NCBI GenBank assembly: GCA_963716175.1
Contig: OY970296.1
Coordinates: forward strand, 2,880,001 to 2,944,000
Origin: an uncultured Armatimonadetes bacterium
GTDB lineage: Bacteria; Armatimonadota; Hebobacteria; Hebobacterales; Hebobacteraceae
Direction: 5' to 3'
Length of the DNA: 64,000 bases
Positions 4,322 to 31,931 of the stretch are shown here, piece by piece. Position 1 is the stretch's first letter. The number at the start of each line of letters is the position of its first letter. The position numbers and the translations under genes are program-made. The notes under the pieces are model-generated. The model did not search any database, had not been told where the DNA came from, and was given only the letters and a program-made list of their open reading frames with translations.

Positions 4322-5704
4322 ATGCGTATCTTCGTCTGTCTGCTGATCGGGGCCCTGCCTTCCTGGGGATCCGCCGCTGCTGCTGTCTCCCAGCCCGCCC
4401 CAGTCCCGACTGACACCGTCTCCGCGAGTTCGGGTAACCTCGTCCCCACCCCCGGATTCGAGGAGATCGCGGACGGCCTGCCTGTGGGCTGGACGACACA
4501 TGCGCCTCGCCCTGAGATCGCCCCTGCTTTCGCCTCGGACAGCGAAGTCGCGCGGTCTGGCCGGCGTTCTCTCCGCCTTTCGGGAGATGGGAAGATGGGG
4601 GTGGTAGGGTGGGTCACGGGCAGCTGCTCAGGCATCCGGGCGGGAAGCACGTACGAGCTGGTCGCGCACTTCCGGGCGGAAGGGATTCCCAGCTCCCAGG
4701 AGTCGGTGTGGGTGAACCTGACCTGGCGGCGCGACGCCTCCGACCCCAGGCCGCGGGTAGCCTACCTCTCTGCGGTAACGCGGGAAGGGGACTGGTGGCA
4801 GGTATCAGGCCGACTCCGGGCCCCGGAGAGCGCCACCATCGCCGACATCTCCCTCGGCCTTCGCCAGGCTCCTGACGGGCGGCTGTGGTGGGACGACGTT
4901 TCGCTCCGGGAGGTGCCGGCCGGCCCGCCCCGTCGTATCCGGCTGGCCACCACACTTGTGCCGCGAGCGGAGCACAATCCCGCGGGATGGCGGAAGGCGA
5001 TCGAGCGGGCCGGGGACGGAAAGGCTGATGTGGTCTGCTTGGGCGAACTCCCCCCGATCGTTGTTCCTGACCCGGGGACTCGTCCGACTATCCCGGGGGC
5101 GGCCACTGCAGTCCTGGCCGAACTCGCCCGGAAGTACCACATGCTGATTATTGTCAGTCTTCCCGAATGGAAGGGAGACGTGTTCTACAACACGGCCGTG
5201 ATCATAGGCCGTGACGGCGACGTCCTGGGAACATATCGCAAGAGCCATCTCCCCGAAGTAGAGGTGGAGCGAGGCAGCACGCCCGGCTCGGAACTCCCGG
5301 TTTTCGACACCGACATCGGCCGCATCGGCCTCCAGATCTGCTACGACCACTTCTTCCCCGAGGTCGCTCGCGTGCTGGCGCTGAAGGGCGCGGAGATCAT
5401 CTTCACTCCCATCGCCGCGGATGAGCGTGCGGCCTACAGAGAGGTGGCCGTGGCGCGGGCCGTTGACAACAGTGTGTTCTACGTCACCTCCACCCGCGGT
5501 GACCCCAGCAGCCTGATAGTGGACCCATCTGGCCGTGTCCTGGCAGAGGCCACGGGCAACCCGGAGGTGGTCTTCGCGGATGTGGATCTCGACGCACCTC
5601 ACTATGAGTTCGAACTGTCGGTCGAGGGCGAGGCCGAGTTCCGGCACCTGTGGCCCAAGGAGCGGCGCCCTTCTCTCTATCGCGAGCTAACTGAGGAGCG
5701 GTGA
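4322..5704 (+). CDS. Exported carbon-nitrogen hydrolase (nitrilase superfamily) with N-terminal CBM4/9-like domain
   Basis: GGAGGAG RBS before ATG 4322; signal peptide; NLVPTPGFE...WDDVSL jelly-roll signature; catalytic triad motifs CLGE, YRKSHL, QICYD. Confidence 0.88.
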   Translation: MRIFVCLLIGALPSWGSAAAAVSQPAPVPTDTVSASSGNLVPTPGFEEIADGLPVGWTTHAPRPEIAPAFASDSEVARSGRRSLRLSGDGKMGVVGWVTGSCSGIRAGSTYELVAHFRAEGIPSSQESVWVNLTWRRDASDPRPRVAYLSAVTREGDWWQVSGRLRAPESATIADISLGLRQAPDGRLWWDDVSLREVPAGPPRRIRLATTLVPRAEHNPAGWRKAIERAGDGKADVVCLGELPPIVVPDPGTRPTIPGAATAVLAELARKYHMLIIVSLPEWKGDVFYNTAVIIGRDGDVLGTYRKSHLPEVEVERGSTPGSELPVFDTDIGRIGLQICYDHFFPEVARVLALKGAEIIFTPIAADERAAYREVAVARAVDNSVFYVTSTRGDPSSLIVDPSGRVLAEATGNPEVVFADVDLDAPHYEFELSVEGEAEFRHLWPKERRPSLYRELTEER

Positions 5705-5719
5705 CCGCTTTGTCTCCTG

Positions 5720-7777
5720 CTAGGCCCAGGGGGAAAGCTGCATGTGCAGGCCCAGCAGTGGGTCTATGGCGCTGCGCAGCCCGATGATCACGAAGTGGCC
5801 CAGGGCCATGCCCACGAAGGCCGGACGCATGGTGGTGTAGAGGCGAAGCCCGCCGAAGCGGCGCAGCAGCGAGACCAGCAGCCAGGCGATGAAGGCGTTG
5901 CTCCAGATGCGGCTGTTCATGGCGCCCGTTCCCCCCATGATGAACCCAATCGGGCTGAGGCCCCACCAGACGAAGCGGGAGTGAAGCCAGTCGAGGCCGT
6001 ACATCGCCGCCGCACCACACACCAGCGCCAGAGTGAGATAAGGGGTGCGGCCTTCGGGGCTCTGCAGGCTAGCGGCGAGTTCGCCGAACTGCCAGTTCCC
6101 GCTGTCCCGGAACTGCCAGGTGTCGAAGTTGAGAGCTGCGTGACGGTAGGCCGCATTGATGTTCACCCAGGGCACGATGGCCATCATCAAGACTACCGCC
6201 AGCAACAGCATCAGCAGGCTGGTGCGGCCGGACACCCGCCCAACATGAAGGAGCTTGAAGTCGTTGACGGTGTAGCTGAGGAAGTTTACTTTCCATTGCA
6301 GCATGAAGGTGTGCTGAAGCAGGGTGACCATGGTGAGAGAAGCCGGGGAGAAGGCGCTGGCGCCCGTGAGGCCCACCAGCACGTCGCGAGGAGCCATGCT
6401 GATGGCGGGTGTGTAAATTCCGCCCGCGGCCACCAGGCGAGCCGTAGCAAGAGAGAAGGTGTAGAAGATAGCCATTAGAGCCACCACCACCCAGAGTTCC
6501 ATGCCAGCACGAAAGGACCAGATACCGACTAAGATAGCGCTGATTGCCAGGCCGATCGCGGCGCCCCGAGGGGAAAGGGGGGCAAGCGGATCGGGAGGCA
6601 AGCCGGGACGGCCATAGAGACTCCGGAGCGCTGCCGCGAGAGAGCGGCGGGACTGCCAGAGGACCAGCAGAGCCAGCATGAAGCAGCCGCCAGTCTCCTG
6701 ATAGGCGATGAAGGCCGAGGGGCTGAAGAGACTGGCGCCCACGGCTTCCTGCCCATAGCCCAGAGCAGCGAAGGTCAGCACTTGGGTGCGATTGGCGAGG
6801 AAGAACAACCATAGGCTCAAGGAGACCTCGGCCGGCAAGAGCGCCAAGATACCGATGGTCTCGAAGCCGATGTAGACATAGGTGTAGAGCAGCGAACTCA
6901 TGGGCCCGGATTGACCGAACCATCGCCCCACCTGCCAGTACATGGATGAGTAGGGCACGGAGGGTGCGAAGGAATGCGCCATCTGGAACAGGGACTGGCC
7001 GACCGGGAGAGCGAAGCCGGCCCAGAGATAGGGGTTGCGAAAGAAGGCAGTCGGGGCCGTGGAACCGTTTCCGGTCATCTCGATGGGCAGAACCGCGAGA
7101 GGGAAAGAGAGGCGCTGGGATTCGATCCAGTCTCGCCGTATCAGGCAGGCCAGCGAGAACAGGCCCAGGTAGAGTGCGAACGCGATCAGGGACCAGTTCC
7201 AGATGGGGGCCAGCCATTCCACCCAGGGGAGGTGAGCGCCGGCCGGCGCGCCTTCGAAGAACCAGCGCACGGCCTCGGGGCTGGTGACCTGGAGCCAGGG
7301 GGGGACGTTCGGGAGCAAGATCTGGGTCCAGCGATTCTCGGGGCTGGCGTAGTACTGCGGTTGGACGGAATTGACCATGACGTAGACGTAGAGCCCCTCA
7401 CCGGCGAAGGCCGCGCAGATCGCCATCATCGCGTACATGAGGAGGAGTTCCGGCCGGGTGAAGGCCAGGTCGGGGCGGAGACGGCGCAGCAGGGCGTTCA
7501 CCGGCCAGACCAGCAGAAAGAGGAGGAAGACCGGGCCCACCCCGAGGGGACGGAAGGCCCAGTCAAACTTGTTGAGCGACAGGTTGAAGTAGGGGATCAG
7601 GAAAGCCAGGGCGATGACGAGGCCGGCGCCCACGGACAGGGCCCAGCCGCGGGGCAGGCGCAGCCGGCGTTGCTCATCAGCAGGGAGGTCGGACATCATA
7701 GCACCGGGTCGGTCGCTGGCAAGAGATTCGATGGCGATGGGCCGGCTCCCCGCCGAAGAATCGCGATCCCTCGCCAT
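5720..7777 (-). CDS. Polytopic membrane protein, DUF6785/DUF6784 type (putative transporter)
   Basis: 685 aa with many TM helices; motifs YYASPENRW, W..SQRLSFPL, WWGLSPIGF, RFGGLRLY...RPAFVG. Start may be ATG 7699 or 7696. Confidence 0.75.
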   Translation of the reverse strand: MARDRDSSAGSRPIAIESLASDRPGAMMSDLPADEQRRLRLPRGWALSVGAGLVIALAFLIPYFNLSLNKFDWAFRPLGVGPVFLLFLLVWPVNALLRRLRPDLAFTRPELLLMYAMMAICAAFAGEGLYVYVMVNSVQPQYYASPENRWTQILLPNVPPWLQVTSPEAVRWFFEGAPAGAHLPWVEWLAPIWNWSLIAFALYLGLFSLACLIRRDWIESQRLSFPLAVLPIEMTGNGSTAPTAFFRNPYLWAGFALPVGQSLFQMAHSFAPSVPYSSMYWQVGRWFGQSGPMSSLLYTYVYIGFETIGILALLPAEVSLSLWLFFLANRTQVLTFAALGYGQEAVGASLFSPSAFIAYQETGGCFMLALLVLWQSRRSLAAALRSLYGRPGLPPDPLAPLSPRGAAIGLAISAILVGIWSFRAGMELWVVVALMAIFYTFSLATARLVAAGGIYTPAISMAPRDVLVGLTGASAFSPASLTMVTLLQHTFMLQWKVNFLSYTVNDFKLLHVGRVSGRTSLLMLLLAVVLMMAIVPWVNINAAYRHAALNFDTWQFRDSGNWQFGELAASLQSPEGRTPYLTLALVCGAAAMYGLDWLHSRFVWWGLSPIGFIMGGTGAMNSRIWSNAFIAWLLVSLLRRFGGLRLYTTMRPAFVGMALGHFVIIGLRSAIDPLLGLHMQLSPWA

Positions 7778-7858
7778 GGTGCCAGTCCGTCCGCGGGTGC
7801 GGCAGCGCTGTTGGGCAGGGCACGCGAGACTCGCGGCGTGTCACACTGGCGTGGGAAG

Positions 7859-7896
7859 GCAATGGGCGGAGGCGCTGCGGTGGCTCCGCCCATTGC
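7859..7896. repeat. Intercistronic hairpin with a 13-bp perfect stem
   Basis: GCAATGGGCGGAG-N12-CTCCGCCCATTGC between the prepilin-like gene and the transporter-like gene; no strong U tract. Confidence 0.65.
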
Positions 7897-7941
7897 GTCT
7901 TCCAGTGGTCGCGCGGAACTCCGTCTGTTGTGCGCCGACTG

Positions 7942-8994
7942 CTACGCCGCCGGCTGGCCGCAGAAGCCCCTGATGTTGCCCTCGTAGTGGTAGACCATGT
8001 CGCTGTAGCCGGTCTCGTCAGCGCAGCACTCGCAGTGAGGCGTGTTCGCCATCAACGCTTCGGCGTTCATCCAGCTGGCATGCCCGTCCGCGAAGCCCAG
8101 GTTGCTGCCGCCCAGGTGCCGGGTGTACTTGGCGCGGAAGGTGGGGTCGGTCGCGAATTTGGGGTACAAGTCCGGGGGCAGCGCGCACGTCTGGGTCCAC
8201 GGGCAGTCCTCCCAGTTCGCGCAGCCCCCTCGGAAGCCGCAGATCTGGTAGGCCACAGTCTCGACGTTCTCTATCACCGACAGGACGCCCAGGTCGGCAC
8301 AGACCATGTACAGTGCGGGATCGGGTATCGCCGAGGTCTTCAGATCAGCGTTCTCTCGCTCGGCGAAGCCGATGCCGGGGTCAAAGGCACCTGCGGTAGC
8401 CGTGGTTGGACCGGTGACCCAGGGGAAGGCCCCGGGCGTTGCCAGTTGCTGCTGGGCCACGGAATCTGTGACCGTGCCTCCCCATCCCGGTGGGTAGGCA
8501 TAGGCGCAGGGGCTGACCACCAGGCCAGTTCCCCATTGGCCCTCACGAGCCTGGAGATACTGCCACCAGCCGTAGCCGTAGTCGGGTACGATGAAGAATG
8601 CTCCCACCTCGAACCGGGCGCTAGGGCAGCGCCAGACATCGCGGTTCCTCACGTACTCGTCCAGGACCACAGCCCAACGCAAGAACGGGTTCGCATTCAG
8701 GGCGCGGCCGCAGTTATCCCTTGGGCCGCCTCCGCCTGGCCCGGTGTCGAAGTAGGCCTGGGCCGCCGGATCGTGAAATCCGGGCGGAAACCGGTCATAG
8801 TCAGTGAGGTACATCTGGACCGCCAGGGCGATGTTCTTCACATTCGACAGGCACTGGATCTTGCGCGCTGACTCCCTGGCCCGGGCGAAGACCGGGAACA
8901 GCATGGCCGCCAGGATCGCGATAATCGCGATCACCACCAACAGCTCAATCAGGGTGAACCCTCTGCATCTCCGACGCAGCATGGAACTTTGCAC
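7942..8994 (-). CDS. Prepilin-type N-terminal methylation domain protein with H-X9-DG motif (DUF1559-like)
   Basis: [34 protein letters not shown]...CLSN; C-terminal [15 protein letters not shown]; GGAGG RBS. Confidence 0.93.
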
Positions 8995-9178
8995 CTCCTC
9001 AGGCTGGGTAACCGCATACTGCTCACAAATGCTCGGGCCGAATCACAAAGCCAACCGCTGGAACCGCACAGTGCGCCGAAGGCAACACCTCCCTTCTGAT
9101 CGCCGACGCCGCCCCCGTTGTTCCGCCTGTATAAGCGTCCTGCCTATGGGGATCGGAGCCACTAGGCCGCTACGTCAT

Positions 9179-9208
9179 ATTGTAGCGTCACAGCCCAGGG
9201 TTCGTCAC
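9179..9208 (-). promoter_or_regulatory. Candidate promoter for the prepilin/transporter operon
   Basis: TACAAT -10 at 9184-9179 and weak GTGACG -35 at 9208-9203 on the minus strand, in the divergent gap next to AraC. Confidence 0.35.
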
Positions 9209-9228
9209 TGGACAAACTTCCTGCGTTC

Positions 9229-10134
9229 TTGTACATTCTTACTCGCGCGAGGTCCGAACCCATAGCGAGTGGCGCCTCCAAGTCTCTCACATCAGTTGAC
9301 AAAGGGCTGACGCCCAGCAACCCGGTCCGCGTTCTCGCCTTGGCTCAGCCGTACCCAGATCCGCCTGCCCGCCACATACACTCGACTTTCGAGATTGGCG
9401 TTCTCCTGACCGGGCAGACAGACAGGTACCTCGAGGACTTGCTGGTCCGGCTGAGGACTGGCGATCTCTACTTGAGTCCGACATGTGAGTCCCACGGGTG
9501 GAGCACCGTTGCTCCCGGCAGCGTGCTGCTGGTAATCTACTTCCTACCACAGTTCCTCGGAGAGGAGACCTTCGAGGGGATACTGTGGATCAACCTGTTT
9601 GCCAGACCTCCGAGCGAGCGCCCGCGTGTCACCAACCCCGAAATGAGGGAAAAGGTCCTCGAGATCGCGCATGAGCTGGAGGAGGAGAGCCGGCACCAGC
9701 GGCCAGGATGGCGGACGGCAGTGCGGCTGGGCATAGTGAAGCTGCTGTTCACCATCAGTCGTGGCTGGCAGCCCGCGAGCCAGGGAGAGCGCCAGCGTGG
9801 CGCGCACTCCAGCGATCTGCTTCGAGTCATGCCCGCGATTAGGCTGATGCAGTCCGACCCCGAGCGCCGGGTAGGCTTGGCCGAGGCGTCGGCAGCATGC
9901 TCGCTCAGCCCTTCACGATTCTCGCTGATCTTTCGCCGGGCCATGGGCGGCAGCTTCGGGAGACTCGCATTGCGATCTCGTGTGGGCAGCGCCGCCGAGC
10001 TTCTCCTGACTAGCGAGCTGTCGGTAGCAGCAGTGGCAGAGAGGTTTGGGTTCGCGGATGCCAGCCATTTGCACCGTGCCTTCTCCAAGCTCTACAGACG
10101 CACTCCGACCGATTACCGACGTGAGGCGCAGTAG
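9229..10134 (+). CDS. AraC family transcriptional regulator
   Basis: Cupin motif HIHSTFEIG; C-terminal double HTH LSPSRFSLIFRR...VAERFGFADASHLHRAFSKLYRRTPTDYR. Start uncertain. Confidence 0.9.
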   Translation: MYILTRARSEPIASGASKSLTSVDKGLTPSNPVRVLALAQPYPDPPARHIHSTFEIGVLLTGQTDRYLEDLLVRLRTGDLYLSPTCESHGWSTVAPGSVLLVIYFLPQFLGEETFEGILWINLFARPPSERPRVTNPEMREKVLEIAHELEEESRHQRPGWRTAVRLGIVKLLFTISRGWQPASQGERQRGAHSSDLLRVMPAIRLMQSDPERRVGLAEASAACSLSPSRFSLIFRRAMGGSFGRLALRSRVGSAAELLLTSELSVAAVAERFGFADASHLHRAFSKLYRRTPTDYRREAQ

Positions 10135-10479
10135 CTGCCCTGTCTTCGGCCATTGCCTACATTCGCAGCCGTCCCCGGTATCGTGCCACCATGCCTCAGA
10201 CTGAAGCGCGTTGCCTGCGTCGCCCAACGGGTGTCCCAGATGCCCATGCCGAGAAGCAGCACGGCAAGTGCTATTCCGACCTGGCCGCCAACGTGGAAGC
10301 GCGTCGGGTCTTCACGCATGACCGGCCGGTGACATAGCCCTGCCCCAACTGCGGGTATGTGCACGAGGCAACAGAAGCACCCAAGGTGTGTCACGCCTGT
10401 GCCCATCTGTCCTTGTCAAGGCCTCGTGAAGCCGGCTGTGGCTGTTCCTATAAGACGGCACGTCAAGACTCCCCCCGTG

Positions 10480-10607
10480 CAGTTTCCCGACGACCATCTT
10501 GTGGTCTCTAATGAGACATGTCCCTATCGGCGTTAACAGCGCGCACGCTATCGTCGGTTTCGGGGGCCTCTCAGGTCAAGCGAGGGCGCTAACTTCGGCC
10601 AAACAGC
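10480..10607 (-). ncRNA. Candidate bridge/seek RNA in the 3' non-coding end of the IS
   Basis: Four short segments match the reconstructed target and the donor junction in the order LTG, RTG, LDG, RDG, with hairpin GTCTC-N4-GAGAC between the donor guides. RNA ends are approximate. Confidence 0.7.
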
Positions 10608-11660
10608 CTACGGGAGAGTGCCCCCATATTGGGCAACAGCTTTGCGGGCTCGGGGTGCCCTGTAATCCTCCTCTTTCTTGAGCATGTAGTAGACCAGATC
10701 CAGCAGGCGTCGCGCCACTGCGATCTTTGCTGGGTTGCGTCCGTGGCGGAAGGCGACCGAGAGGAAGAGGCGCTTCAGGCGCGGATCGGGCTCCTTCATC
10801 TGCCCGATCCGCTGCGCCGCTAGCACCGCGGCATACCGCAGCCACTTGTTGCCGGCCTTGGTGAGCGGGCCCCGAGCGTCCTTGTCTCCGGTCTGGTAGA
10901 CCGCCGGTACCAGCCCGGAGTAGCCCCGCAGCTGCGCCCGTCCCGGGAAGCGGTTGATGTCGCCGATCTCCACCGCCAAAGCAAGACTAAGGAAGGGACC
11001 GATCCCAGGGATCGTTCGCAGGCGCCGCGCCATCGGATGCTTCGCTGAGGTGTGCTCAACCATGCGCTCGAAGTCATCCACTTTGGCTTGCACAACAACC
11101 AGAATCTCTCGTAAGCCGGCCAGCATCTGCCCCGCGTGGCCTTCCAGCTCCACCTCCTCCAGCCACAGCTGTCCGCGTTCGCTCATCAGGTCTCGATGCG
11201 GACACTCATGACCGTGACGCGCCAACAGCATTCGGATCATCGTCCGCACCTGGGTCGACATACGAGTCAGCGCGGTCTTGCCTCGGGTCAGCTCTCTCAG
11301 ATCCATCGTCTGCCCATCCGGTCGCCACTGTGGCTTCAGTACGCCCTTTGCAGCCCACCACGCCAAGGCGGCCGCATCCCGCCGATCGGTCTTCGAAATC
11401 GTGTGCTGCAACCTTCGGACCTCTCCTAGGTCTACGATCCACACCTCCTCCGCCATCGACTCCAGCAGGCCCGCCATGTGGTAGCTGCTCCGTCCGGCTT
11501 CCAGCACCACCGTCTTCGGACAGGGCAGCCCCTCCAGCGTCTCCTCCAGGGCTGATGCCTCGTTGCTCACCGACCCCAGATCGTGTACCTCTCCGGTCGC
11601 AGGATCGAAGCACCCCATCCGAGAAAAGCGCTGGTGTACGTCCAGTCCAATCCAGATCAT
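10608..11660 (-). CDS. IS110 family transposase (bridge recombinase)
   Basis: DEDD domain IGLDVH, VLEAG, KTDRRDA; Transposase_20 domain LRTIPGIG...EIGDINRF...GLVPAVYQTG...GNKWLR; AGGAGG RBS before ATG 11660. Confidence 0.96.
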   Translation of the reverse strand: MIWIGLDVHQRFSRMGCFDPATGEVHDLGSVSNEASALEETLEGLPCPKTVVLEAGRSSYHMAGLLESMAEEVWIVDLGEVRRLQHTISKTDRRDAAALAWWAAKGVLKPQWRPDGQTMDLRELTRGKTALTRMSTQVRTMIRMLLARHGHECPHRDLMSERGQLWLEEVELEGHAGQMLAGLREILVVVQAKVDDFERMVEHTSAKHPMARRLRTIPGIGPFLSLALAVEIGDINRFPGRAQLRGYSGLVPAVYQTGDKDARGPLTKAGNKWLRYAAVLAAQRIGQMKEPDPRLKRLFLSVAFRHGRNPAKIAVARRLLDLVYYMLKKEEDYRAPRARKAVAQYGGTLP

Positions 11661-12075
11661 CGTCGGTCTCCTCCTGATGAGAGTGTTTGTGCTTCGAGCA
11701 CCTTTCAACACTTACAGGGGGAGACCGTCTTATGATAGTCAAGGGCCGCTGGAACCGTCTCATACTGGGCCCAGACGTGCCGTTACGTGCCAGGATTAGT
11801 GAGCCCGCCGCGGGTGGCGGCCTTCAGAGCGGCTTCCTCGCGGCGATGACGGCCTCTTCCAGATCCTGCCAGACTACATCAACCAGCTCGAAGCTACACT
11901 GGCGCCACTCAGCGATATGTAATCCGCTCGGACATACACCAGGCACCCACATGCAGGCTGCTGAACATGACCGCGGCAACGGACCTGCGGAGCCAAACGG
12001 CTGGCCCTGCGCGTTCCCCCGCGAAGCCACTCTAGTGGCTCATGCCTGCAGGATGAACCTGTTGGCGCTGTGGAG

Positions 12076-14448
12076 TCACTTCGGCGCAACCCTCTCATCT
12101 ACGCCCAGATGCGGCGTAATCAGAATCGTCAGGACATTTTCGTCCACCCGGCGGTGGTTGGAGCGGAAGAGCTGACCAAGTAGCGGAAGGTCGCCGAGCA
12201 ATGGCGTCTTGCTCGTCGCCTGCGTCTCCTGCCTGAGCACCAGCCCGCCAATGACGATGGTCTCGCCGTCCTTGAGCACGACGCTCGTCGTCGCCTGTCG
12301 TGCCGTGACATCCGGCAGGCTGCTCGTAGCCGTGAACGTGAAGTTGCCGACCATCACCTCCACATCCACTTGCACATTGCCCGCGCCCAGCACCCGCGGC
12401 GTGATCTTGCCTCCGATGTCCGCGGAGATGTCGCTCTGCTGAATGATGGGGCGGCCGAACTGGTCGTAGCCCTGCGTATAGAAGTAGTACTTCGTCCGCC
12501 GGATGTTCATGGTGGCGGTCTTGCCGCTCACCGCGGTCAGCCGCGGGTTGGCGCGAATGGTCACCTCGCCTTTCTCCTCCAGCGCGTTGAGCGAGACGAA
12601 GAACTTGTCATCTAGCCGCTGCACGCCCTGGTAGAAGACCTGGCCCGGCCCGAAGTCACCGATAGGTAACCGACCGCCCAGGTGCCCCTTGGCATAGGCC
12701 CAATCCAGGCCCAGGTCGCGGCTCGCCGTCTTGGACATCTCGGTCACTAGCACATCCATCACCACCTGCGGGGCCGGCGTGTCGATCGGCTTGAGGTAGT
12801 CTCGGATCCGCTGTGCGGCATCGGGTGGGCCGTTCACAATGAGGAGGTTCCGCTCGGGGTTGATGACCACATACGCCTTGTCTCCGGCGGGCAGCGAATC
12901 CAGCGCCTGCTGTGCGGTCATGTTCACCGGCTGGATCAGTGCGTAGCCCAGCGCAGCCGCCGTCGCAGCAGGAGCCGCCGGCCCGGCATTCAGAGCGGCG
13001 GCAGAGGCCGGAGGTGTCGGGGCGGGAGCCGCAGCCTCAGCTGAAGCCGATGACGCGGGCGCCGACGACCTGCTTTCCCCCGGCACCTCGAGCACGTAGA
13101 GGTCGGGCTCGTACTCCTGCTTCTCCCAACTGATGACCTTCGACTGGCACAGGAGAATACGCCTACCATCCGGCGCCCAAGACGCGGCATCATTATGCAA
13201 GTAGACAGGATCCTTCTGTCGGCGGTAGTAGAGCAGCTCCGTGGCCGTCCCCGTCGGCACGTCGTAGATCGCGAAGTCGTCGCCGGGGTCGGTCTCCTGC
13301 TCATTGCCCGCGCCCCGCACCACGTAGGTGATTCCGTGACGGAAGACCTTCTTGGAGTCCGGCGAAATCGTCCAGTCGTGCTGGTCGCTGTGCTCTCGCG
13401 ACCCCATCTGGGTGCCCATGATGCGCCGCCACTGGCGCGACTTCCAGTGGATGAGGAACGTGCCCTGATACCCGCGGCCGGAGGCATCTGCCTGTACGCC
13501 GTGGCAGATGATGAAGCTGCCGTCCGGCGACCAGGAGGGATGGACGAAAGTGCCCCGTCCATCGCTCGACTGGCTTCGGCCCGAGATGAGTGTCTGCTCA
13601 TCGCTGCCATCCGGCCGAATCACCAGAATGTCCCAGTTCCAGCCGTTGCGCGCTTCATCGGGGTACCGATCCTTGGCCGAGAAGAACACGATCCACTGCC
13701 CATCCGGCGACCACTTCGGCTCGCCGCAGTCGCGCCGGTCGTTTGTGATCTGCTTGAGCGTCATGCCATCGCTGCTGGCCACCCAGAGCTCGGGCTGCGC
13801 GTCCTTTGAGGGAAGTGCGTTGAACACGATCCGCGTGCTGTCCGGCGACCATGATCCCAACGTCTCGAACGGCTTCGTGGTGGCCAGGTTCGCTCCCAGT
13901 CGCACCGGGGCCGATCCGTCTATCGGGAAGACCGTGACGAAGGTGCCGTCGCGCTGCCGGTCATAGACCTGATAAGCCAAGTGCTGAGAGTCAGGAGCCC
14001 AGATCGGCGGCGCGCTGTCGGCCGCGCCGAAGTCGCCCCGACGATAGCCGCCGCTGGTTCTCTTTGTCTCTCCGCCAGCCAGGGTGTAGACGCACACCGT
14101 CGCCCCGCTGGCATCCTCGTTCTTGCTGGCGAAGACGTAGCCGATCCTCTTGCCATCGGGCGCCCAAGCGCACAGCATCGGCCAGCCCACTGGGCTGATG
14201 GCCTGGCCCTCACTTCCGTCTCCGCGCATGAGCCAAAGCTGGCGGTCGGTCTTGCTGACGGCCTTGTAGAAGACGATCTGGTCCCCGACCGGGGCGAAGC
14301 CAGCGCCACGCTCAGTGGAAGACTTGCCGTCATTCGTGGTCCGGTGGATAACCAGTCCCGGCGCCACTGTCTGTGCCGTGGCCGGTCCACACACGTGGAT
14401 GGAGAGCACCAGACACAGCAGGACAAGCTTCAGGGAATGCTTGAGCAT
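12076..14448 (-). CDS. TolB/PD40 beta-propeller fused to a secretin (GspD/PilQ-type) domain
   Basis: Signal peptide; about 7 W(S/A)PD(G/S)-type repeats; Ala/Pro linker; N3 domain NLLIVNG...IDTPAPQV; secretin core ANPRL, RQATTSVVLKDGETIVIGGL, PLLGDLPLLGQLF, ILITPH. Confidence 0.87.
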   Translation of the reverse strand: MLKHSLKLVLLCLVLSIHVCGPATAQTVAPGLVIHRTTNDGKSSTERGAGFAPVGDQIVFYKAVSKTDRQLWLMRGDGSEGQAISPVGWPMLCAWAPDGKRIGYVFASKNEDASGATVCVYTLAGGETKRTSGGYRRGDFGAADSAPPIWAPDSQHLAYQVYDRQRDGTFVTVFPIDGSAPVRLGANLATTKPFETLGSWSPDSTRIVFNALPSKDAQPELWVASSDGMTLKQITNDRRDCGEPKWSPDGQWIVFFSAKDRYPDEARNGWNWDILVIRPDGSDEQTLISGRSQSSDGRGTFVHPSWSPDGSFIICHGVQADASGRGYQGTFLIHWKSRQWRRIMGTQMGSREHSDQHDWTISPDSKKVFRHGITYVVRGAGNEQETDPGDDFAIYDVPTGTATELLYYRRQKDPVYLHNDAASWAPDGRRILLCQSKVISWEKQEYEPDLYVLEVPGESRSSAPASSASAEAAAPAPTPPASAAALNAGPAAPAATAAALGYALIQPVNMTAQQALDSLPAGDKAYVVINPERNLLIVNGPPDAAQRIRDYLKPIDTPAPQVVMDVLVTEMSKTASRDLGLDWAYAKGHLGGRLPIGDFGPGQVFYQGVQRLDDKFFVSLNALEEKGEVTIRANPRLTAVSGKTATMNIRRTKYYFYTQGYDQFGRPIIQQSDISADIGGKITPRVLGAGNVQVDVEVMVGNFTFTATSSLPDVTARQATTSVVLKDGETIVIGGLVLRQETQATSKTPLLGDLPLLGQLFRSNHRRVDENVLTILITPHLGVDERVAPK

Positions 14449-20499: not shown

Positions 20500-23127
20500 T
20501 CAGTCCGTGGCGATCTCGTACCAGAGACTGTGGTAGCCGGGCGAGATGGTGAATGTCAGGCGGCCGTTCGCCAGCGAGGACGCGACCGGCATGATGCGCC
20601 TGCCAGTGGCGTCGAGTGCGTAGACCGATGCGGTGCGCGCTTCAGTTGGCACGGTGATGGTGGCGGTGACAGTCTCAGCCATAGTCGGCCCGCTGGCCCA
20701 TGAGTTCTTTGCGAAGGTGCGGTCAGCGTTCCACTCCAGGCCCTGGTTCTCGACCTCATCCACGACGGTCAGCAGCAGTGACCGTGACTTGGTCATCGCC
20801 TTCGCGTCCATGCTGGCGAGCACGAGGGAGACGAAGTTGCGCTGGGTCAGCTCCATCGCCACAGTCACGCCGTCCAGGTCCACCGACTTGCCGCCGAGGA
20901 AGCCCACGACGGTTTTCGCGCATTGGGAGTCTACGGTGAACAGGGCTTCGGCCGGCTTCTCACTTGACCACTGGAGTGAGGGCGCGCCGGTGCCGCCTCG
21001 CCGCTCGATCTGGATCGGTCCGGCCCCGCTCGCGAAGCGGACGGCGGTGCGGCGGGCGATCATGTCACGGGCGGAAACAGGCGTGCCCTGCGCGGCCTGC
21101 CAGAAGCCGTAGTCCGTGCGCTGGGTGACGACCTCGGCGATCCTGTCTGCGGGAACGACGAGGATTTGCTCAGCAGGGGCTGGAGCAACGCAGCCGCGGA
21201 GGAAGATCTCAGCGGCCGCAGGCAGGAAGGCGAGCTTGCCCGGGTGCGCGGACTGATCGAAGAAGCCGTCGATATGGTCGCGGTCCCATCCCTTCGCCTC
21301 GCCATGGTACGCGAAGAGGAATACTCCGTCCCAGTCCTGCCAGGCGGCGTAGGCGAAGAGCATGGGCACAGCCTCAGAGGCATACTCATTGGGCGCGGGC
21401 TCGTCGTATTCGCTCACGGTGAACGGCATGCCCGCGACGCGATGCATCGCCAGACCTGCGAGCGTGCCGCCGCCCTGATCGCGAACCATCGGCGTGTTCT
21501 CGATGAGGTAGTCCTCGGAGTCCCAGTCCTGGTGCGGGAAGCTGGGGTGCTGCCAGTAGGCGTGCATGTCGATCCAGTCCATGTGTGACTCGCGCCAGAC
21601 GCCGCCGAGTCCGCCGTAGCTGGCCTGAGTGCAGGTGACGGGCGCCTTCGCGCCGAGGGTGCGCTGGATGTAGTCGCGCATGCCCCGGGTGAAATCGCGC
21701 TCGACCTGGATGAGGTAGGTGACGTAGTCCCGGCCCTCCGGGCTCTCGGCGACCACCGGGAGGGAGATGCTGGCACCCTTGAGGGACTCGCCGGGAGCCA
21801 ACTCGACCGCTCCGCCGCCCGGACGCACGGCGACGTCGGCGAGGAAGACGTCGCCGGCCTCGCCGCCGAAGACGAAAGAGAGGCGCGTGTGGTTGGAGAC
21901 AGTGGTTCGGGCGATGAAGCTGAAGCTGCAGCGCTGCCACTGGGGCTTGAGGGCAACGCGTGCGTCGAGGCCGACATTGCGCCACGGATCCTCGTCCAGC
22001 AGCACGCCGACGCTGATGGAGCGCGGGACAACGGAGCGGCCTGCGAAGGAGACAGTGTAGGTTTCGCCGTCCTCTAGGTTCAGACCGAGCTGATGGAACT
22101 GGAGGTGCCAATCGGTGCCGTCCAGCCGCAGCTTCGCCAGTCGCAGAGCGCGGCCGGCCGGCGCGCCGGCGTCCTGCGGGATTGGCTCCAAGGTTGTCTC
22201 AGCGCTTGTTCCCTCGTGCTGCTCGAGCGTCCAACCTTCCGTGCCGCCGACGAATCTCGGATTGCGCAGCAGGTTCGCGCCGAGGGGCTTGGCACGCGCG
22301 TTCCAGGCCGCGAGCATCTTCTCGGTCGTGCCGTACTTGCGGGAGAGGAACTGATTCCAGCCGGCGGCGAGGATGTTGCGATAGTAATCGGGCAGGCCGG
22401 GCACCACGTCGGCCGAGGCGAGGAGGGAGTCTTCGTTGGTGATCTCGATCAGGGCGACGGTCGGCTCATCGGCATACGTCGACTTCGTGTAGGGATTGAG
22501 GTGGGTGAGGAGCTGCTGGGCGTAGAGCTTCTGGCGCTCGATCATACCAGGCACGAAGTAGCCGACGACCTTGCCCATCTCATCGATCTTATCGGTGTCA
22601 CGGAACCCGTCAGCCTGGTTGAAGCCGCGAGAGACGTGCAGGTTCATGTCCACGTAGATCCCGTGGAGCTTGAACTGATAGATGAGGTAGTCGAGGCGGT
22701 CGAGGCTTTGCGGGTCGAGCCGGTCGGTCTTCTTGCCATATGAGCCGCCGGAGATGAAGAACATGTTGGGCTCGGCCCAGGTGGCATCCATGTGGTGCAG
22801 GCGAACGCAGTTGAAGCCGAGCTTATGCATCCTGGCGGCGATCTGCGGCGCGTCCTCTTTCGCGGGGAAGCACGCCCCGGCGGCCAGGTTCGTGCCGACG
22901 AAGCGCACGCGGCGTCCCGTTCCATCGAAGAAGTGGCCGTCCTTGATGACGACGCGACGGCTCTCATCGATGGGGGCGGGGTTCAGCGCAGAGACGTCGA
23001 CAACGGTCTTCGAAGCATCGTTCCAGGGCATGACGAAGGGGAACTGCTTGGGCGCACTGAGTGCCGCCTGAGCCAGAGTCGCGGCCAGCAACAACGCTCC
23101 GGCGGCAATCACCACGGATTTCGTCAT
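20500..23127 (-). CDS. Exported clan GH-A glycoside hydrolase with inserted CBM4/9 (GH148-like)
   Basis: RFVGTNL, NCVRLHHMD, LLTHLNPYT, EITNED (acid/base), inserted NLLRNPRF...WHLQFHQ...ADV module, DMHAYWQHP, TVSEY (nucleophile); signal peptide; GGAGGAG RBS. Confidence 0.8.
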   Translation of the reverse strand: MTKSVVIAAGALLLAATLAQAALSAPKQFPFVMPWNDASKTVVDVSALNPAPIDESRRVVIKDGHFFDGTGRRVRFVGTNLAAGACFPAKEDAPQIAARMHKLGFNCVRLHHMDATWAEPNMFFISGGSYGKKTDRLDPQSLDRLDYLIYQFKLHGIYVDMNLHVSRGFNQADGFRDTDKIDEMGKVVGYFVPGMIERQKLYAQQLLTHLNPYTKSTYADEPTVALIEITNEDSLLASADVVPGLPDYYRNILAAGWNQFLSRKYGTTEKMLAAWNARAKPLGANLLRNPRFVGGTEGWTLEQHEGTSAETTLEPIPQDAGAPAGRALRLAKLRLDGTDWHLQFHQLGLNLEDGETYTVSFAGRSVVPRSISVGVLLDEDPWRNVGLDARVALKPQWQRCSFSFIARTTVSNHTRLSFVFGGEAGDVFLADVAVRPGGGAVELAPGESLKGASISLPVVAESPEGRDYVTYLIQVERDFTRGMRDYIQRTLGAKAPVTCTQASYGGLGGVWRESHMDWIDMHAYWQHPSFPHQDWDSEDYLIENTPMVRDQGGGTLAGLAMHRVAGMPFTVSEYDEPAPNEYASEAVPMLFAYAAWQDWDGVFLFAYHGEAKGWDRDHIDGFFDQSAHPGKLAFLPAAAEIFLRGCVAPAPAEQILVVPADRIAEVVTQRTDYGFWQAAQGTPVSARDMIARRTAVRFASGAGPIQIERRGGTGAPSLQWSSEKPAEALFTVDSQCAKTVVGFLGGKSVDLDGVTVAMELTQRNFVSLVLASMDAKAMTKSRSLLLTVVDEVENQGLEWNADRTFAKNSWASGPTMAETVTATITVPTEARTASVYALDATGRRIMPVASSLANGRLTFTISPGYHSLWYEIATD

Positions 23128-23404
23128 CTCCTCCACTCCTGAGACCTCACGGGGACTCTAGCAAACCGATGATGCTTTGAGCGGCCGCCAGCCAAACCGA
23201 CACTGGTTTCGCTCGTCGCGCCGGACATGCCTGCCAGCAATAGCGCTGTTCAAGAGCCTGGCAGATACCAACGCCCGTTTGTGGCGACGAAACGGAAGTT
23301 CTGGGTAACCCCCCATTCCCTTGCTGGGCGCCTTGACAGCGGTCTCATTGGTGGTTGACGAGTACTGGCGGCCTTGCAGGCGCTTAGCATGGATAGGAGG
23401 CGCC

Positions 23405-24541
23405 TCACTTCGCGTTGTTGCGCGGCGCGGGCTGTGCCGCCACGGGTCCGCGGCGTGCGCTGCCCCTGTGACTGCCCGGCCAGCACGAACAGAGGCCCTC
23501 GAGCTTCGGATCGGCGAAGGGCTCGACGCTCGTCACCAGCCAGTCGGATGGGCACCACTTCGCATGTCCGTCGAGGAAACCGATGTTGCTGCCGCCGTCG
23601 TGCCGTGTGAACGTCTTCCGGTAGGCCTCATCTTTCATCACGCGCGGCAGCGCGTCCGCGCTCAGGCCGCACTCCCGCGTGAAGGGGCAATTCACCCAGT
23701 CCGCGAGCGCGCACGTGCTTGCGCTGTCCCTGCTCCCCGGCTCCGCGCCTATCCCGTTGAGCTTGCAGGTGTCGGGGAAGGCCACGGACTCCATACGATC
23801 GATCTCTGTCTGTCTGCTGTCGTCTCCGCAGGTGACGTACCGTGCAGGCTCGGGTACCGAGGCCAGCTTCAGTCCGCGCAGATGGCTGTTGACCGCCAGG
23901 GCCTGCTGGAAGCCGGCCCGATGCTGCTGATGCGGGCTGGGAGGGCCCATCCCCGGCGCTACCGCGGCGCGGCCTTGTGCGAACGAATCCGTTAAATCGC
24001 CGCCCCACCCTGACGGCCAGGCTGTACAGCACGGCCCTGCACCGCCCGTCTGCTGGCAGTTCGCATTCACACGCCCCCACCTGCCCTGGTGATCTTGGTA
24101 GGCGCGCACCCAGTCGCGGTCCGGGCCCAGCGGCAGGATGAAAGAGGCGGGGTTGCGCATCTTCGCGTTGGGACAGTCCCAGACCCTGCGATCCTCCGTG
24201 TACTTGTCGAGCAGCACAGCCGGACGCAGATATGGGTTGGCAGCGAGGAGGTGGGGGCACTCACTAACATCGGCACGCGTCTGGCCGCCCCCCGGGGCGC
24301 GGCTGAAATAGTCGACGGCTCCCGGGCTATGCTCGTCCGGAAAGAGCGCCCCCCAGTCGTGCTGGTACATCGTGATGGCCAGGGCGATAGTCCGCACGTT
24401 GGACAGGCATTGCTCGTCCCCCGCCGTCTGCCTGGCGCGACCGAACACGGGCAGCAGCACGCTCGCCGGCACCCCAATGATCGCGAGCGTGACCAGCAGT
24501 TCAATAAACGTGAACCCAGTGCCTTTCCCAGGCTCGGCCAT
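23405..24541 (-). CDS. Second prepilin-type / H-X9-DG protein (DUF1559-like)
   Basis: GFTFIELLVTLAII...CLSN; RHDGGSNIGFLDGHAKW. Confidence 0.88.
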   Translation of the reverse strand: MAEPGKGTGFTFIELLVTLAIIGVPASVLLPVFGRARQTAGDEQCLSNVRTIALAITMYQHDWGALFPDEHSPGAVDYFSRAPGGGQTRADVSECPHLLAANPYLRPAVLLDKYTEDRRVWDCPNAKMRNPASFILPLGPDRDWVRAYQDHQGRWGRVNANCQQTGGAGPCCTAWPSGWGGDLTDSFAQGRAAVAPGMGPPSPHQQHRAGFQQALAVNSHLRGLKLASVPEPARYVTCGDDSRQTEIDRMESVAFPDTCKLNGIGAEPGSRDSASTCALADWVNCPFTRECGLSADALPRVMKDEAYRKTFTRHDGGSNIGFLDGHAKWCPSDWLVTSVEPFADPKLEGLCSCWPGSHRGSARRGPVAAQPAPRNNAK

Positions 24542-24983: not shown

Positions 24984-25568
24984 TTGCCACGCTACGACAG
25001 GGACGCGGCGCTGGTCGGTAGCTTCCTGCAAGGGGACCTAAGCGCTTTCGACGCGTTAGTGGCGAGGCACCGAGGACACGTGTATGGCGTAGCCTATCGG
25101 ATGACACGGGACAGAGAGGCGGCAGAGGATATCACTGTCGAGGCCTTCTGCGAAGCCTATCGCGGCTTGCCTCGCTTCCGGCCCCAGGCGAGGTTCTCTA
25201 CCTGGCTGCACCGGATCACGGTCAATGTGTGCTTAGAGCATCTCCGCCATGCTCGACGCAAACGACAAGTGGAGGAAGTGGCACTGGAGGATGACCTGCC
25301 CGCACCCACCGATGCGGCCGAGACAGTCATCACCAGAGACTTGGCGTGCCGCATCGTGCGAGCCATTGAGGAACTGCCCCCAGCCCAACAGGAAGCGATC
25401 AGGATGTTCTACTTCGAGCAGCGATCCTGTGCCGAGATCGCGCAAGCGCTCAAGATTCCTCGCAACACCGTGAAGACCCGCCTTTTCTACGGCACAAAGG
25501 CGCTCAGAGATCGTTTCGAGGCAGAGGCGGTTCTCGAATCGGAGGGGGAGCTTCATGTCGAGATGTAA
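24984..25568 (+). CDS. ECF RNA polymerase sigma-70 factor
   Basis: GDLSAFDALV, AEDITVEAF, FSTWLHRITVN, EIAQALKIPRNTVKTRLFYG. Confidence 0.92.
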   Translation: MPRYDRDAALVGSFLQGDLSAFDALVARHRGHVYGVAYRMTRDREAAEDITVEAFCEAYRGLPRFRPQARFSTWLHRITVNVCLEHLRHARRKRQVEEVALEDDLPAPTDAAETVITRDLACRIVRAIEELPPAQQEAIRMFYFEQRSCAEIAQALKIPRNTVKTRLFYGTKALRDRFEAEAVLESEGELHVEM

Positions 25569-30362: not shown

Positions 30363-31931
30363 GTGACCGGACCTTCTGAGGACGGCGAGCAGTCCGAACG
30401 AGCGACCACGCGTGCTCGGGCTGTAGCATACGCCAGGATGTCTACCGAGCATCAGCAGTACTCGGTCGACAACCAATGCGACGTGATGCGGGAGTACGCC
30501 TCCCGGCACGCCATGGAGATAGTGCGTGTGTACGCCGACGAGGGAAAGAGCGGGCTGCGGCTCAGCGGCAGGGACTCGCTGAAGCGACTCATTGCTGATG
30601 TGAGCAGCCCGACTAGGGACTTCAGCGCCATCCTCGTCTACGATGTCAGCCGGTGGGGCCGGTTCCAGGACGTCGACGAGAGCGCGTACTACGAGTACGC
30701 GTGCCGACGTGCAGGCGTCGATGTGCACTACTGCGCAGAGCAGTTTGCCAACGACGGCAGTCCGGTCTCTACCATCGTGAAGGGCATAAAGCGGGCGATG
30801 GCCGCAGAGTACAGCCGAGAGCTGTCTGCCAAGGTCTTCAGGGGCCAGTCCCGACTGGTTCAGCTTGGGTTCAGGCAAGGGGGCCGTGTCGGCTATGGCC
30901 TCCGCAGGGTACTCGTTGACCAGGAGGGCAACGTTAAGGGCTTGCTCTCCGAGGGCGAGCACAAGAGCATCGCGACCGACAGAGTGGTATTGCAGCCAGG
31001 GCCCCCGGAGGAGCTGGCGATCATCCGATGGATGTTCCTGCAATTCGCCGTTGAGAGGAGAACCGAACCGCAGATTGCTGAGACCCTCAATGCGGAGGAG
31101 ATCGTTGCCCACTCCGGGGGCCCTTGGACACGGGCGATGGTCCACTACGTTTTGACGAACGAGAATTACATAGGCAACAACGTCTACAATCGGACGAGCT
31201 GCAAGCTGAGGAAGAAACGCGTGCACAACACCCCGGATATGTACGTTCGCGCCAATGGGGTGTTCGAGCGAATCGTTGATCTGGACTTGTTCGCCCGAGC
31301 GCAGGAGATCATGGCGGAGCGATGGCGGAAGCGGCCCGATGCGGAGTTGGTGAAGGGGCTGAAGCAGCTCTTGCAGCGGCACCGTCATCTCTCGGTCCGG
31401 ATCATCAACGCGTATGACAAAGGCCCATCGGCCTCAACCTACACCAGGCGGTTTGGCAATTTGCTGCCAGCCTACCGGATGGCCGGCTATGTGCCGAGGC
31501 GCGACTTCGCGTACCTGGAGATCAACAGGCAACTCAGGAAGCTGCATCCCCAGGTAGTGCTGCAGATCAGAACCGGCATGGTGGCCCAAGGCGCGGTGGT
31601 CACGTATGATGAGGAAGCTGACCTGCTAACGGTTAACAGCGAGTTCACGGTGTCAGCAGTGATCGCCAGGTGCCTCCAGACACGTTGTGGCGCGTGCCGG
31701 TGGGTGGTCCGTCTGGACACAAGGCTGAAGTCTGACATCACGGTCGCTGTTCGCATGGATCACGACAATATCGGCCCCATGGACTACTACCTGCTCCCCA
31801 CCACGGACATGCCGGGTGAAGAGCTCCGGCTAGGCGAGACCAACGGGCTGCTGGTCGACCGGTACAAGTTCCAGGATCTCGACTACTTGGCGCGGATGGC
31901 ACGTCGAGCTCATATCCAGGAGGTGATCTAG
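30363..31931 (+). CDS. Large serine recombinase (recombinase family protein)
   Basis: AVAYARMSTEHQQYS, YADEGKSG, LVYDVSRWGR, MAAEYSRELS, GYGLRR, VLTNENYIG. Confidence 0.93.
   Translation: MTGPSEDGEQSERATTRARAVAYARMSTEHQQYSVDNQCDVMREYASRHAMEIVRVYADEGKSGLRLSGRDSLKRLIADVSSPTRDFSAILVYDVSRWGRFQDVDESAYYEYACRRAGVDVHYCAEQFANDGSPVSTIVKGIKRAMAAEYSRELSAKVFRGQSRLVQLGFRQGGRVGYGLRRVLVDQEGNVKGLLSEGEHKSIATDRVVLQPGPPEELAIIRWMFLQFAVERRTEPQIAETLNAEEIVAHSGGPWTRAMVHYVLTNENYIGNNVYNRTSCKLRKKRVHNTPDMYVRANGVFERIVDLDLFARAQEIMAERWRKRPDAELVKGLKQLLQRHRHLSVRIINAYDKGPSASTYTRRFGNLLPAYRMAGYVPRRDFAYLEINRQLRKLHPQVVLQIRTGMVAQGAVVTYDEEADLLTVNSEFTVSAVIARCLQTRCGACRWVVRLDTRLKSDITVAVRMDHDNIGPMDYYLLPTTDMPGEELRLGETNGLLVDRYKFQDLDYLARMARRAHIQEVI

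Follow-up and report, generated by a model that had tools for sequence, protein, structure and literature searches.

The window analysed here is a stretch of 64,000 nucleotides from an uncultured Armatimonadetes bacterium (positions 2,880,001 to 2,944,000 of contig OY970296.1, assembly GCA_963716175.1), and the system in question is a group of genes at 4322–14448 of it, which an initial annotation, made from the sequence alone, had described as an uptake locus built around a pilin-like protein and a membrane transporter. All the genes it named were found in place and with the expected domains. They comprise a CN_hydrolase amidase (4322–5704, + strand; PF00795 E 9e-42, with amidase and nitrilase matches in the PDB), a DUF6785+DUF6784 polytopic membrane protein (5720–7777, − strand; Pfam E 6e-110 and 5e-19), an H-X9-DG/DUF1559-type pilin-like gene (7942–8982, − strand; PF07963, PF07596, TIGR02532 and TIGR04294) and, divergent from the latter, an AraC-family regulator with a cupin ligand domain (9229–10134, + strand; PF12833 and PF02311) whose exact start is uncertain. 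Beyond the regulator lie an insertion sequence (IS) of the IS110 family and a gene at 12076–14448 (− strand) in which a TolB-like (PD40) beta-propeller is joined to Secretin_N and Secretin domains (Secretin domain E 2e-33). Since the genes were called genome-wide with our own dicodon caller, the start sites are approximate. No TonB-dependent receptor or ABC permease match was found in the window (SusD itself was not searched for), in agreement with the earlier statement that the region has neither SusC/D nor an ABC importer.

The amidase and DUF6785 genes are convergent, with their stops 16 nt apart. The gene had been called an exported hydrolase; it is present and has a hydrophobic N-terminus, as judged by eye, but it encodes a nitrilase-superfamily amidase and not a glycoside hydrolase. 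Its N-terminal domain of about 200 aa had no Pfam match. Seven of 13 members of its family lie no more than 4 kb from a pilin or DUF6785 gene, and the amidase is probably the catabolic partner of the group. The DUF6785 protein has 685 aa when read from the first ATG and about 659 aa if translation starts at 7699; the latter agrees better with the homologue consensus and may be the true start. In the spacer between the pilin and DUF6785 genes, a GC-rich hairpin at 7855–7900 (− strand) is a faint candidate for a processing or attenuation site, as folding of 7780–7941 with RNAfold gave a z of −1.84 and 8 of 200 shuffled sequences folded equally well. The control region between the divergent pilin and AraC genes (8983–9240) has overlapping sigma70-like sites at 9179–9237; the promoter scan of this region found three such sites against 1.4 in shuffled sequences, which is not significant. 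A second Shine-Dalgarno-like purine run was seen at 9086–9097 (− strand), approximately 105 nt ahead of the pilin start, and is not followed by a usable start codon.

In the sequence searches, a Pfam OPT match was absent from all 13 DUF6785 proteins scanned at E up to 1, and a profile of the family (105 rows) had no match in the PDB. An AlphaFold2 model of the DUF6785/6784 protein, which had a mean confidence score (pLDDT) of 92, matched barley YS1 in Foldseek (7wst; E 7.7e-10, TM 0.60), and VIA-align aligned 557 residues with 7wsr at Z 23.4 and rmsd 4.3, the next row having a Z of 5.0. The protein is thereby predicted to have the OPT/Yellow-Stripe fold over its whole chain. Since there is no OPT sequence match, we describe it as an OPT-like carrier by fold and do not file it as a member of OPT. 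The modelled secondary-transporter fold supports the earlier claim of an inner-membrane transporter, and the protein is probably a secondary importer of the inner membrane. No paper on DUF6785, DUF6784 or PF20581 was found in the literature searched, subscription-only literature being outside the search, and the fold match offers DUF6785 its first testable job.

The pilin-like protein at 7942–8982 (the first pilin) has a short, basic class III leader with cleavage between G and F, Glu5 and a hydrophobic tract (PF07963 E 5e-11; TIGR02532 above cut-off). PF07596 matched with 41.8 bits (cut-off 23.3), in the N-terminal stub only, and TIGR04294 with 20 bits (cut-off 19), so that the three marks of the H-X9-DG/DUF1559 family (N_methyl, DUF1559 and the C-terminal H-X9-DG) were all found in it. 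F1 and E5 of the mature protein were invariant across 118 homologues. The AlphaFold2 model (pLDDT 90.5) has an N-terminal helix at 3–54 (52 residues) and C-terminal strands at 284–298 from the H-X9-DG segment. With VIA-align, the best 17 rows were all pilins or pseudopilins, ComP being among the structural rows, aligned mostly over the helix to about residue 300 with Z no higher than 4.5, and Foldseek gave no PDB match for the whole model at E 0.001. For the variable head, neither program found a PDB fold match with the whole model as query (the head was not folded alone), and its Atlas neighbours were unnamed or DUF1559 clusters. The model suggests a small pilin core with an insertion of about 220 residues.

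The source genome (4.56 Mb, single contig) contains 53 pilin-like loci by a family profile that detects the C-terminal motif, 41 of them intact, and 50 TIGR04294 matches above cut-off. Among the 41 intact paralogues, mean identity was 98% over mature residues 1–43, 39% over the insertion and 66% over the H-X9-DG segment; the proteins contain 8–18 cysteines, and the heads are Cys-rich and variable. A shared shaft with variable heads is consistent with the proposal that these proteins are interchangeable subunits. In the same genome, 57 DUF6785 matches merge into 47 loci, 9 of which are in pieces. These nine loci, and several pilin genes, are split by frameshifts.

To see how the two families are arranged, we compared their positions with three null models. 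A pilin gene lay directly upstream and on the same strand in 9 of the 47 DUF6785 loci, where 0.41 were expected under the genome-wide, 1.08 under the 100-kb and 1.36 under the 30-kb null, and nine such tandems were reached in none of 1000 draws under any of them. Within 3 kb, 16 pairs were observed against 3.0–8.3 expected; at 10 kb, the count (23 against 19.1; 75 of 1000 draws) was not significant against the 30-kb local null. The tandems are spread over several DUF6785 clades. As at least five changes are needed on a quick DUF6785 tree, the idea that they all descend from a single duplicated pilin–permease cassette was rejected.

The pilins are also linked with AraC genes. All 13 AraC genes detected in the genome with Pfam stand beside a pilin gene; the distance is no more than 500 nt for 12 of them and 1.6 kb for the other, and seven are divergent from the pilin as here; since they fall into two paralogue groups, they do not represent 13 independent events. 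For the enzymes, we took the 139 genes within 2.6 kb of pilins, after removal of pilins, DUF6785 and AraC genes, and 104 control genes at a distance of over 10 kb from every pilin and DUF6785 gene, a choice of controls that favours a difference. Carbohydrate-active enzyme (CAZyme) domains, i.e. those of glycoside hydrolases (GH), polysaccharide lyases (PL) and carbohydrate-binding modules (CBM), were found in 25/139 genes near pilins and in 6/104 controls (about threefold; p 0.006), and CAZymes together with other catabolic enzymes in 58/139 and 16/104, respectively (p 1e-5). These tallies were made by hand, with categories fixed after the tables had been seen. Regulator and CAZymes are thus co-located, as in a polysaccharide utilization locus (PUL), at the level of the family; the 4322–10134 group itself has an amidase and no CAZyme. 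The results showed that the genome-wide linkage on which the initial annotation had staked its interpretation is strong for pilins with AraC, with DUF6785 and with CAZymes.

The same arrangement was looked for in related genomes, which are designated by our own handles (G000 is the source genome). In five genomes of five families (counted after two duplicate fragment rows had been dropped), a pilin preceded DUF6785 in tandem at 17 of 107 loci, with 0.85 expected under a uniform model, and for seven relatives combined the figure was 19 of 165 (about 1.2 expected). Of 22 AraC genes in the five genomes, 10 lay no more than 1.5 kb from a pilin start (G030 2/2, G117 2/3, G058 6/15 and G049 0/2; G103 has no AraC). 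The remaining two relatives, G127 and G128, are complete chromosomes, for which fragments were merged and the pilins were those among the matches listed; there, 10/12 (0.47 expected) and 4/7 (0.16 expected) AraC genes were within 1.5 kb of a pilin, i.e. 14/19 against 0.63. G095, which has 15 DUF6785 and 35 AraC genes, was excluded from the adjacency counts, as pilin positions were not searched there. In the phylum as sampled, 98 of 121 genomes have DUF6785, usually in many copies.

Riboswitches provided a link between the pilin family and defined nutrients. In eight genomes, with 118 candidates scored per genome, we found seven cobalamin riboswitches, one each in seven genomes, and all seven end upstream of an H-X9-DG pilin, at 107–205 nt from its cleavage site. 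Of three thiamine pyrophosphate (TPP) riboswitches, two stand in front of pilins belonging to another group and one in front of Thi4; over the seven cobalamin and two TPP riboswitches, the distance to the cleavage site is 97–205 nt. The baseline for such pairing is low, as pilins make up about 1–2% of genes. The seven heads behind cobalamin (B12) riboswitches are mutually homologous (all 21 pairs, 27–64% identity) and conserved across five or more families, and the seven cases therefore represent one conserved pairing and not seven events. Four of the seven loci (G000, G058, G030 and G127) continue with cobamide-salvage or BtuF-type genes. The only cobalamin riboswitch found in the source genome (G000:C1:3988000-3995370) heads an H-X9-DG pilin gene, after which come CobS and a binding protein of BtuF type, and in three of the seven loci there is a separate Peripla_BP_2 binding protein. 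In such riboswitch-led operons, this slot is usually occupied by btuB. The clade of the head and the predicted nutrient therefore go together, and the pilin stands in the usual btuB slot, as an addition to the periplasmic binding protein where there is one. The nutrient-uptake role proposed for the pilins gains support from these riboswitch-controlled relatives.

It could be argued that the pilins are substrate-specific but form no filament, and that, held in the inner membrane by their shaft or as a short pseudopilus, they bind or sense substrates in the periplasm and hand them to DUF6785 or other carriers. The bulky head on a small pilin core and the Pfam name of the domain (SBP_bac_10) would be in keeping with this, as would two reports, one that Tuwongella proteins of this type fractionate with detergent-soluble membranes (PMC8567305) and another that a pilin aids iron acquisition without piliation or cleavage (PMC13170364). 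Since, however, three of the seven B12 loci already have their own Peripla_BP_2, the pilin is not simply a periplasmic binding protein; moreover, Glu5 and a shaft with 98% identity suggest that the protein is under selection to engage an assembly machine, and heads and permeases have not diverged together, as described below. We consider this explanation unlikely.

The initial annotation had assigned the adjacent secretin to the locus. At 3.1 kb from the pilin, it is the only one of the nine secretins in the genome that lies within 44 kb of a pilin. However, since 11% of all genes are within 5 kb of a pilin, one secretin of nine is the value expected by chance. Among 77 related loci, there were only three full-length propeller–secretin orthologues (74, 55 and 55% identity), none of which has a pilin, DUF6785 or AraC gene within 8 kb; one adjoins a serine recombinase, another forms a tandem pair, and the third has a transposase nearby. 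It is in itself rare and unusual for a TolB-like beta-propeller to be fused with a secretin. The gene is stand-alone here and in the three orthologues, not part of a complete type IVa pilus (T4aP) or type II secretion system (T2SS), whereas other secretins of the genome occur in complete type IV pilus, T2SS-like and Tad clusters. Taking out the IS110 element still leaves about 640 nt between the convergent AraC and secretin genes, and this gap contains a start-less remnant with a Cys motif. Thus, because the AraC gene is on the opposite strand and the IS110 element and the remnant-bearing gap intervene, the secretin is not co-transcribed with the pilin–permease pair.

The reading in which the propeller–secretin is a dedicated outer-membrane pore, so that all five genes form one machine, draws on its proximity and its unusual fusion; in view of the chance-level distance, the three orthologues, the intervening genes and the settings of the other secretins, it is largely refuted, and we regard it as most improbable. 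The secretin was rejected as a part of the module and is probably a mobile bystander, an incidental neighbour. The start-less remnant, at 10337–10410 between the AraC and secretin genes, has two Cys pairs and no match among the called genes of the genome; it resembles the rubredoxin-like C-terminal end of rubrerythrin.

A filament machine is encoded elsewhere. The genome has 9 secretins and 21 T2SSE matches, and one complete T4aP run consists of PilM, PilN, PilO, secretin, PilB, PilT and PilC; in addition, there are a T2SS-like cluster, a Tad cluster and PilD. Five ORFs carry a PilT-type motif. Three secretin genes stand in tandem at G000:C1:1423000-1428300, none of the neighbours scanned being a pilus gene, and this trio is a candidate for a shared or heteromeric pore. 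In contrast to the pilins, TonB-dependent receptors (PF00593) are scarce: the genome has two, both far from the window, and 14 genomes of the phylum have 0–4. ABC permeases (PF00528) gave 12 matches.

The CAZyme and AraC linkage would fit equally well if the pilins were substrate-induced adhesins on pili that hold the cell to a polymer particle, co-regulated with catabolic genes and without a role in transport, uptake being left to secreted enzymes and ordinary porins. Adhesion is a known function of modular tip pilins (PMC8179133), MUL2 of Akkermansia has been interpreted in terms of attachment (PMC13174399), and planctomycete fibres bind dextran (PMC5394234). This explanation, however, accounts neither for cobalamin and TPP riboswitch control ahead of salvage and import genes nor for the scarcity of TonB-dependent receptors, and it appears quite unlikely to us.

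With moderate confidence, we therefore favour the reading in which 4322–10134 is one substrate-specific nutrient-acquisition module among dozens in the genome, its pilin probably working through shared type IV machinery encoded elsewhere. In this module, as the layout suggests, the AraC regulator would sense a small breakdown product and turn on the divergent pilin–permease pair. The pilin-like protein carries the motifs for cleavage, and it would be processed by the prepilin peptidase of the genome. Because the first 43 residues are nearly identical across the family, one shared filament machine (PilMNO, secretin, PilB, PilT and PilC) could handle any of its members, the variable, Cys-rich head presumably giving substrate specificity by binding. 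Heads on a retractile filament, or at its tip, would then bring the substrate through the shared secretin to the periplasm and so take over the role that TonB-dependent receptors have elsewhere; within the module explanation, we give true retractile transport about an even chance. The product in the periplasm would be imported by the DUF6785 carrier, possibly by proton coupling, and the predicted exported amidase may trim an amide or acyl group of the substrate. The combination of an amidase with the OPT fold hints at a compound with an amide or peptide part, rather than at a plain glucan, as what is taken up.

Several observations weigh against this reading. Firstly, the two families are often apart: no pilin lies within 5 kb of 28 of the 47 DUF6785 loci, and the nearest DUF6785 is over 5 kb away for 33 of the 53 pilins. 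Tandems are rare in the complete chromosomes G127 (1/39) and G128 (1/19), 2/58 in total with 0.31 expected. The pilin profile matches all 121 genomes of the phylum, mostly via its N-terminal part, including 23 without DUF6785; in two Poribacteria-labelled genomes, DUF6785 gave 35 and 29 matches and the pilin profile none, and five Planctomycetota-labelled genomes lack DUF6785, the four of them tested for pilins having 11–78 matches. Among five homologues of the permease with 54–63% identity, one has a pilin in tandem and one is in an AraC–lyase–permease–amidase module without a pilin; of the others, the first is approached by convergent pilins less than 2 kb away, a second has none, and for the last the upstream sequence is cut off. 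The partnership of pilins and DUF6785 is not an obligate one. Secondly, the head and the adjacent permease show no co-divergence (Mantel rho −0.06, n=8, and 0.05, n=12; the power is low), and matched pilin–permease pairs are not supported, within the limits of that power. Thirdly, the structural match of the pilin is weak, and in the model the head is so bulky that it may suit the tip of a filament only. Fourthly, the riboswitch pilins belong to a different subfamily, with a head similarity to the pilin of the window of only about E 1e-4, and it is by inference that their role is extended to it. Finally, in the relative G030 (G030:C1:262000-269000) a TonB-dependent receptor is convergent with, and adjoins, an H-X9-DG pilin.

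What the analysis shows of the initial uptake interpretation is which genes are present, that their linkage is not random, the fold of the transporter, the division of the pilins into shaft and head, and that shared genes for assembly and retraction exist. The secretin has to be given up, and a fixed pairing of pilin and transporter is not supported, because of the many DUF6785 loci far from a pilin, the missing co-divergence and the separate occurrence of the families in other phyla. Pilin and permease share a pathway but not necessarily a complex.

The window contains a second module. Its glycoside hydrolase (20500–23136, − strand; CBM_4_9 E 9e-10, weak GH5 match) is secreted, clan-A-like and, with CBM4 in its interior, GH148-like in architecture; it is preceded by a second H-X9-DG pilin-like gene (23405–24541, − strand), co-oriented and 268 nt upstream, which confirmed the arrangement reported initially at 20.5–24.5 kb. 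The hydrolase matched the laminarinase 16A chain 1gui over residues 339–439, and its Atlas clusters carry CBM4, GH5 and GH42. By layout, and not by alignment, it resembles EngU, a GH148 endo-beta-glucanase with CBM4 inserted mid-sequence (PMC5725463), which is likewise clan-A-like. The second pilin is 39% identical to the first and has a degenerate shaft with an extra Pro within the hydrophobic tract. Divergent from it, at 24984–27888, lie an extracytoplasmic function (ECF) sigma factor and an anti-sigma-like protein with zf-HC2, FecR, PDZ and TPR domains, and this pair could regulate the pilin–GH148-like pair in place of AraC.

The surroundings are island-like. The IS110 element (approximately 10444–11742, − strand; NF033542 above cut-off) has end homologies elsewhere in the genome, its limits being approximate, and its transposase gene (10608–11660, − strand) lies outside the module. 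A terminase (574–2220) and a serine recombinase with two ParB/RepB genes (30363–34014) frame the region and suggest an integrative element, and 15.5–20.4 kb of the window is largely duplicated near 2.80 Mb of the genome. Pilins and DUF6785 genes both concentrate around the contig ends. One might thus see in the pilin family a repertoire for surface variation, for example against phages, that lands in accessory regions, with the neighbours only co-travelling; the near-identical 5′ block with variable heads, the clustering of both families around contig ends and the island-like window would be compatible with it. The linkage nevertheless persists under local nulls, includes all 13 AraC genes and recurs in other families, and the heads behind B12 riboswitches are conserved across at least five families. 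We judge this explanation to be very unlikely.

The question has a wider bearing, as outer-membrane import of polymers in Planctomycetota, Verrucomicrobiota and similar TonB-poor diderms has been described as unknown (PMC11131199, PMC12673574), and DUF1559/H-X9-DG ranks among the largest of their families without a known function (PMC4807772). The literature searched, which did not extend to subscription-only literature, contained no link of H-X9-DG/DUF1559 or DUF6785 to regulators, riboswitches or uptake, and the excerpted text of PMC11071339 has nothing on these genes. The neighbourhood statistics allow predictions substrate by substrate, with B12 and thiamine named by the riboswitches and particular glycans by the CAZyme neighbours. 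As a tentative proposal, which we consider possible rather than probable, Armatimonadota and perhaps other DUF1559-expanded phyla may have replaced TonB-dependent receptors by tens to hundreds of plug-in, substrate-induced pilins on one retractile filament, hauling nutrients through a shared secretin. If so, glycans, vitamins and large nutrients would reach the periplasm by pilus, where OPT-fold DUF6785 carriers or ABC systems would take over, and this would be a general, pilus-powered nutrient route across the outer membrane and categorically new.

Known relatives include the DUF1559/SBP_bac_10/H-X9-DG prepilin-like proteins of Planctomycetota and related groups, and their expansion and localisation have been reported (PMC8567305, PMC4807772), the DUF1559-type domain being called exclusive to the Planctomycetes–Verrucomicrobia–Chlamydiae (PVC) superphylum in one of these papers. 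The pilins of the window share with them the class III leader, the DUF1559 stub, the C-terminal H-X9-DG and a large, dispersed expansion. Unlike what the excerpted reports describe, the Armatimonadota family occurs in linkage with AraC, DUF6785, CAZymes and riboswitches, and DUF6785 was absent from the five genomes that represent Planctomycetota here. The DUF6785 protein, in turn, resembles the OPT/Yellow-Stripe-like (YSL) transporters, a reviewed family (PMC3061005), in its modelled whole-chain fold, in size and in having hydrolase neighbours, and differs from them in the low identity (11–15%), in neighbours that are glycan-catabolic rather than mainly peptidases and in its approximately 47 copies in this genome.

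With regard to loci for uptake, the comparison is with PULs and btuB operons. Bacteroidota PULs use SusC/SusD, and btuB operons are riboswitch-controlled. The system described here is similar in having many loci, predicted to be substrate-specific, that combine a regulator, a capture protein, an inner-membrane importer and hydrolases, and in its riboswitch-led vitamin operons. Unlike the SusC/SusD PULs of Bacteroidota (mentioned in PMC11131199), it has no tandem of a SusC-type TonB-dependent transporter with SusD (SusD was not searched for), the two PF00593 matches of the genome lying elsewhere; there is no outer-membrane channel per locus, and a pilin-like gene stands in the place of the receptor.

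Uptake by a type IV filament is familiar from competence pili with ComP. A binding module on a pilin scaffold and pilus genes that are needed for, or linked to, polymer uptake have precedents in PilB of Streptococcus sanguinis, a modular pilin (PMC8179133), in MUL2 of Akkermansia (PMC13174399, 10.64898/2025.12.30.696933) and in planctomycete fibres (PMC5394234). The present family differs from these in that the module is predicted to be inserted within the pilin core and not grafted at the C-terminus, and in that there are about 50 paralogues with one common shaft, each in a catabolic or vitamin locus of its own.

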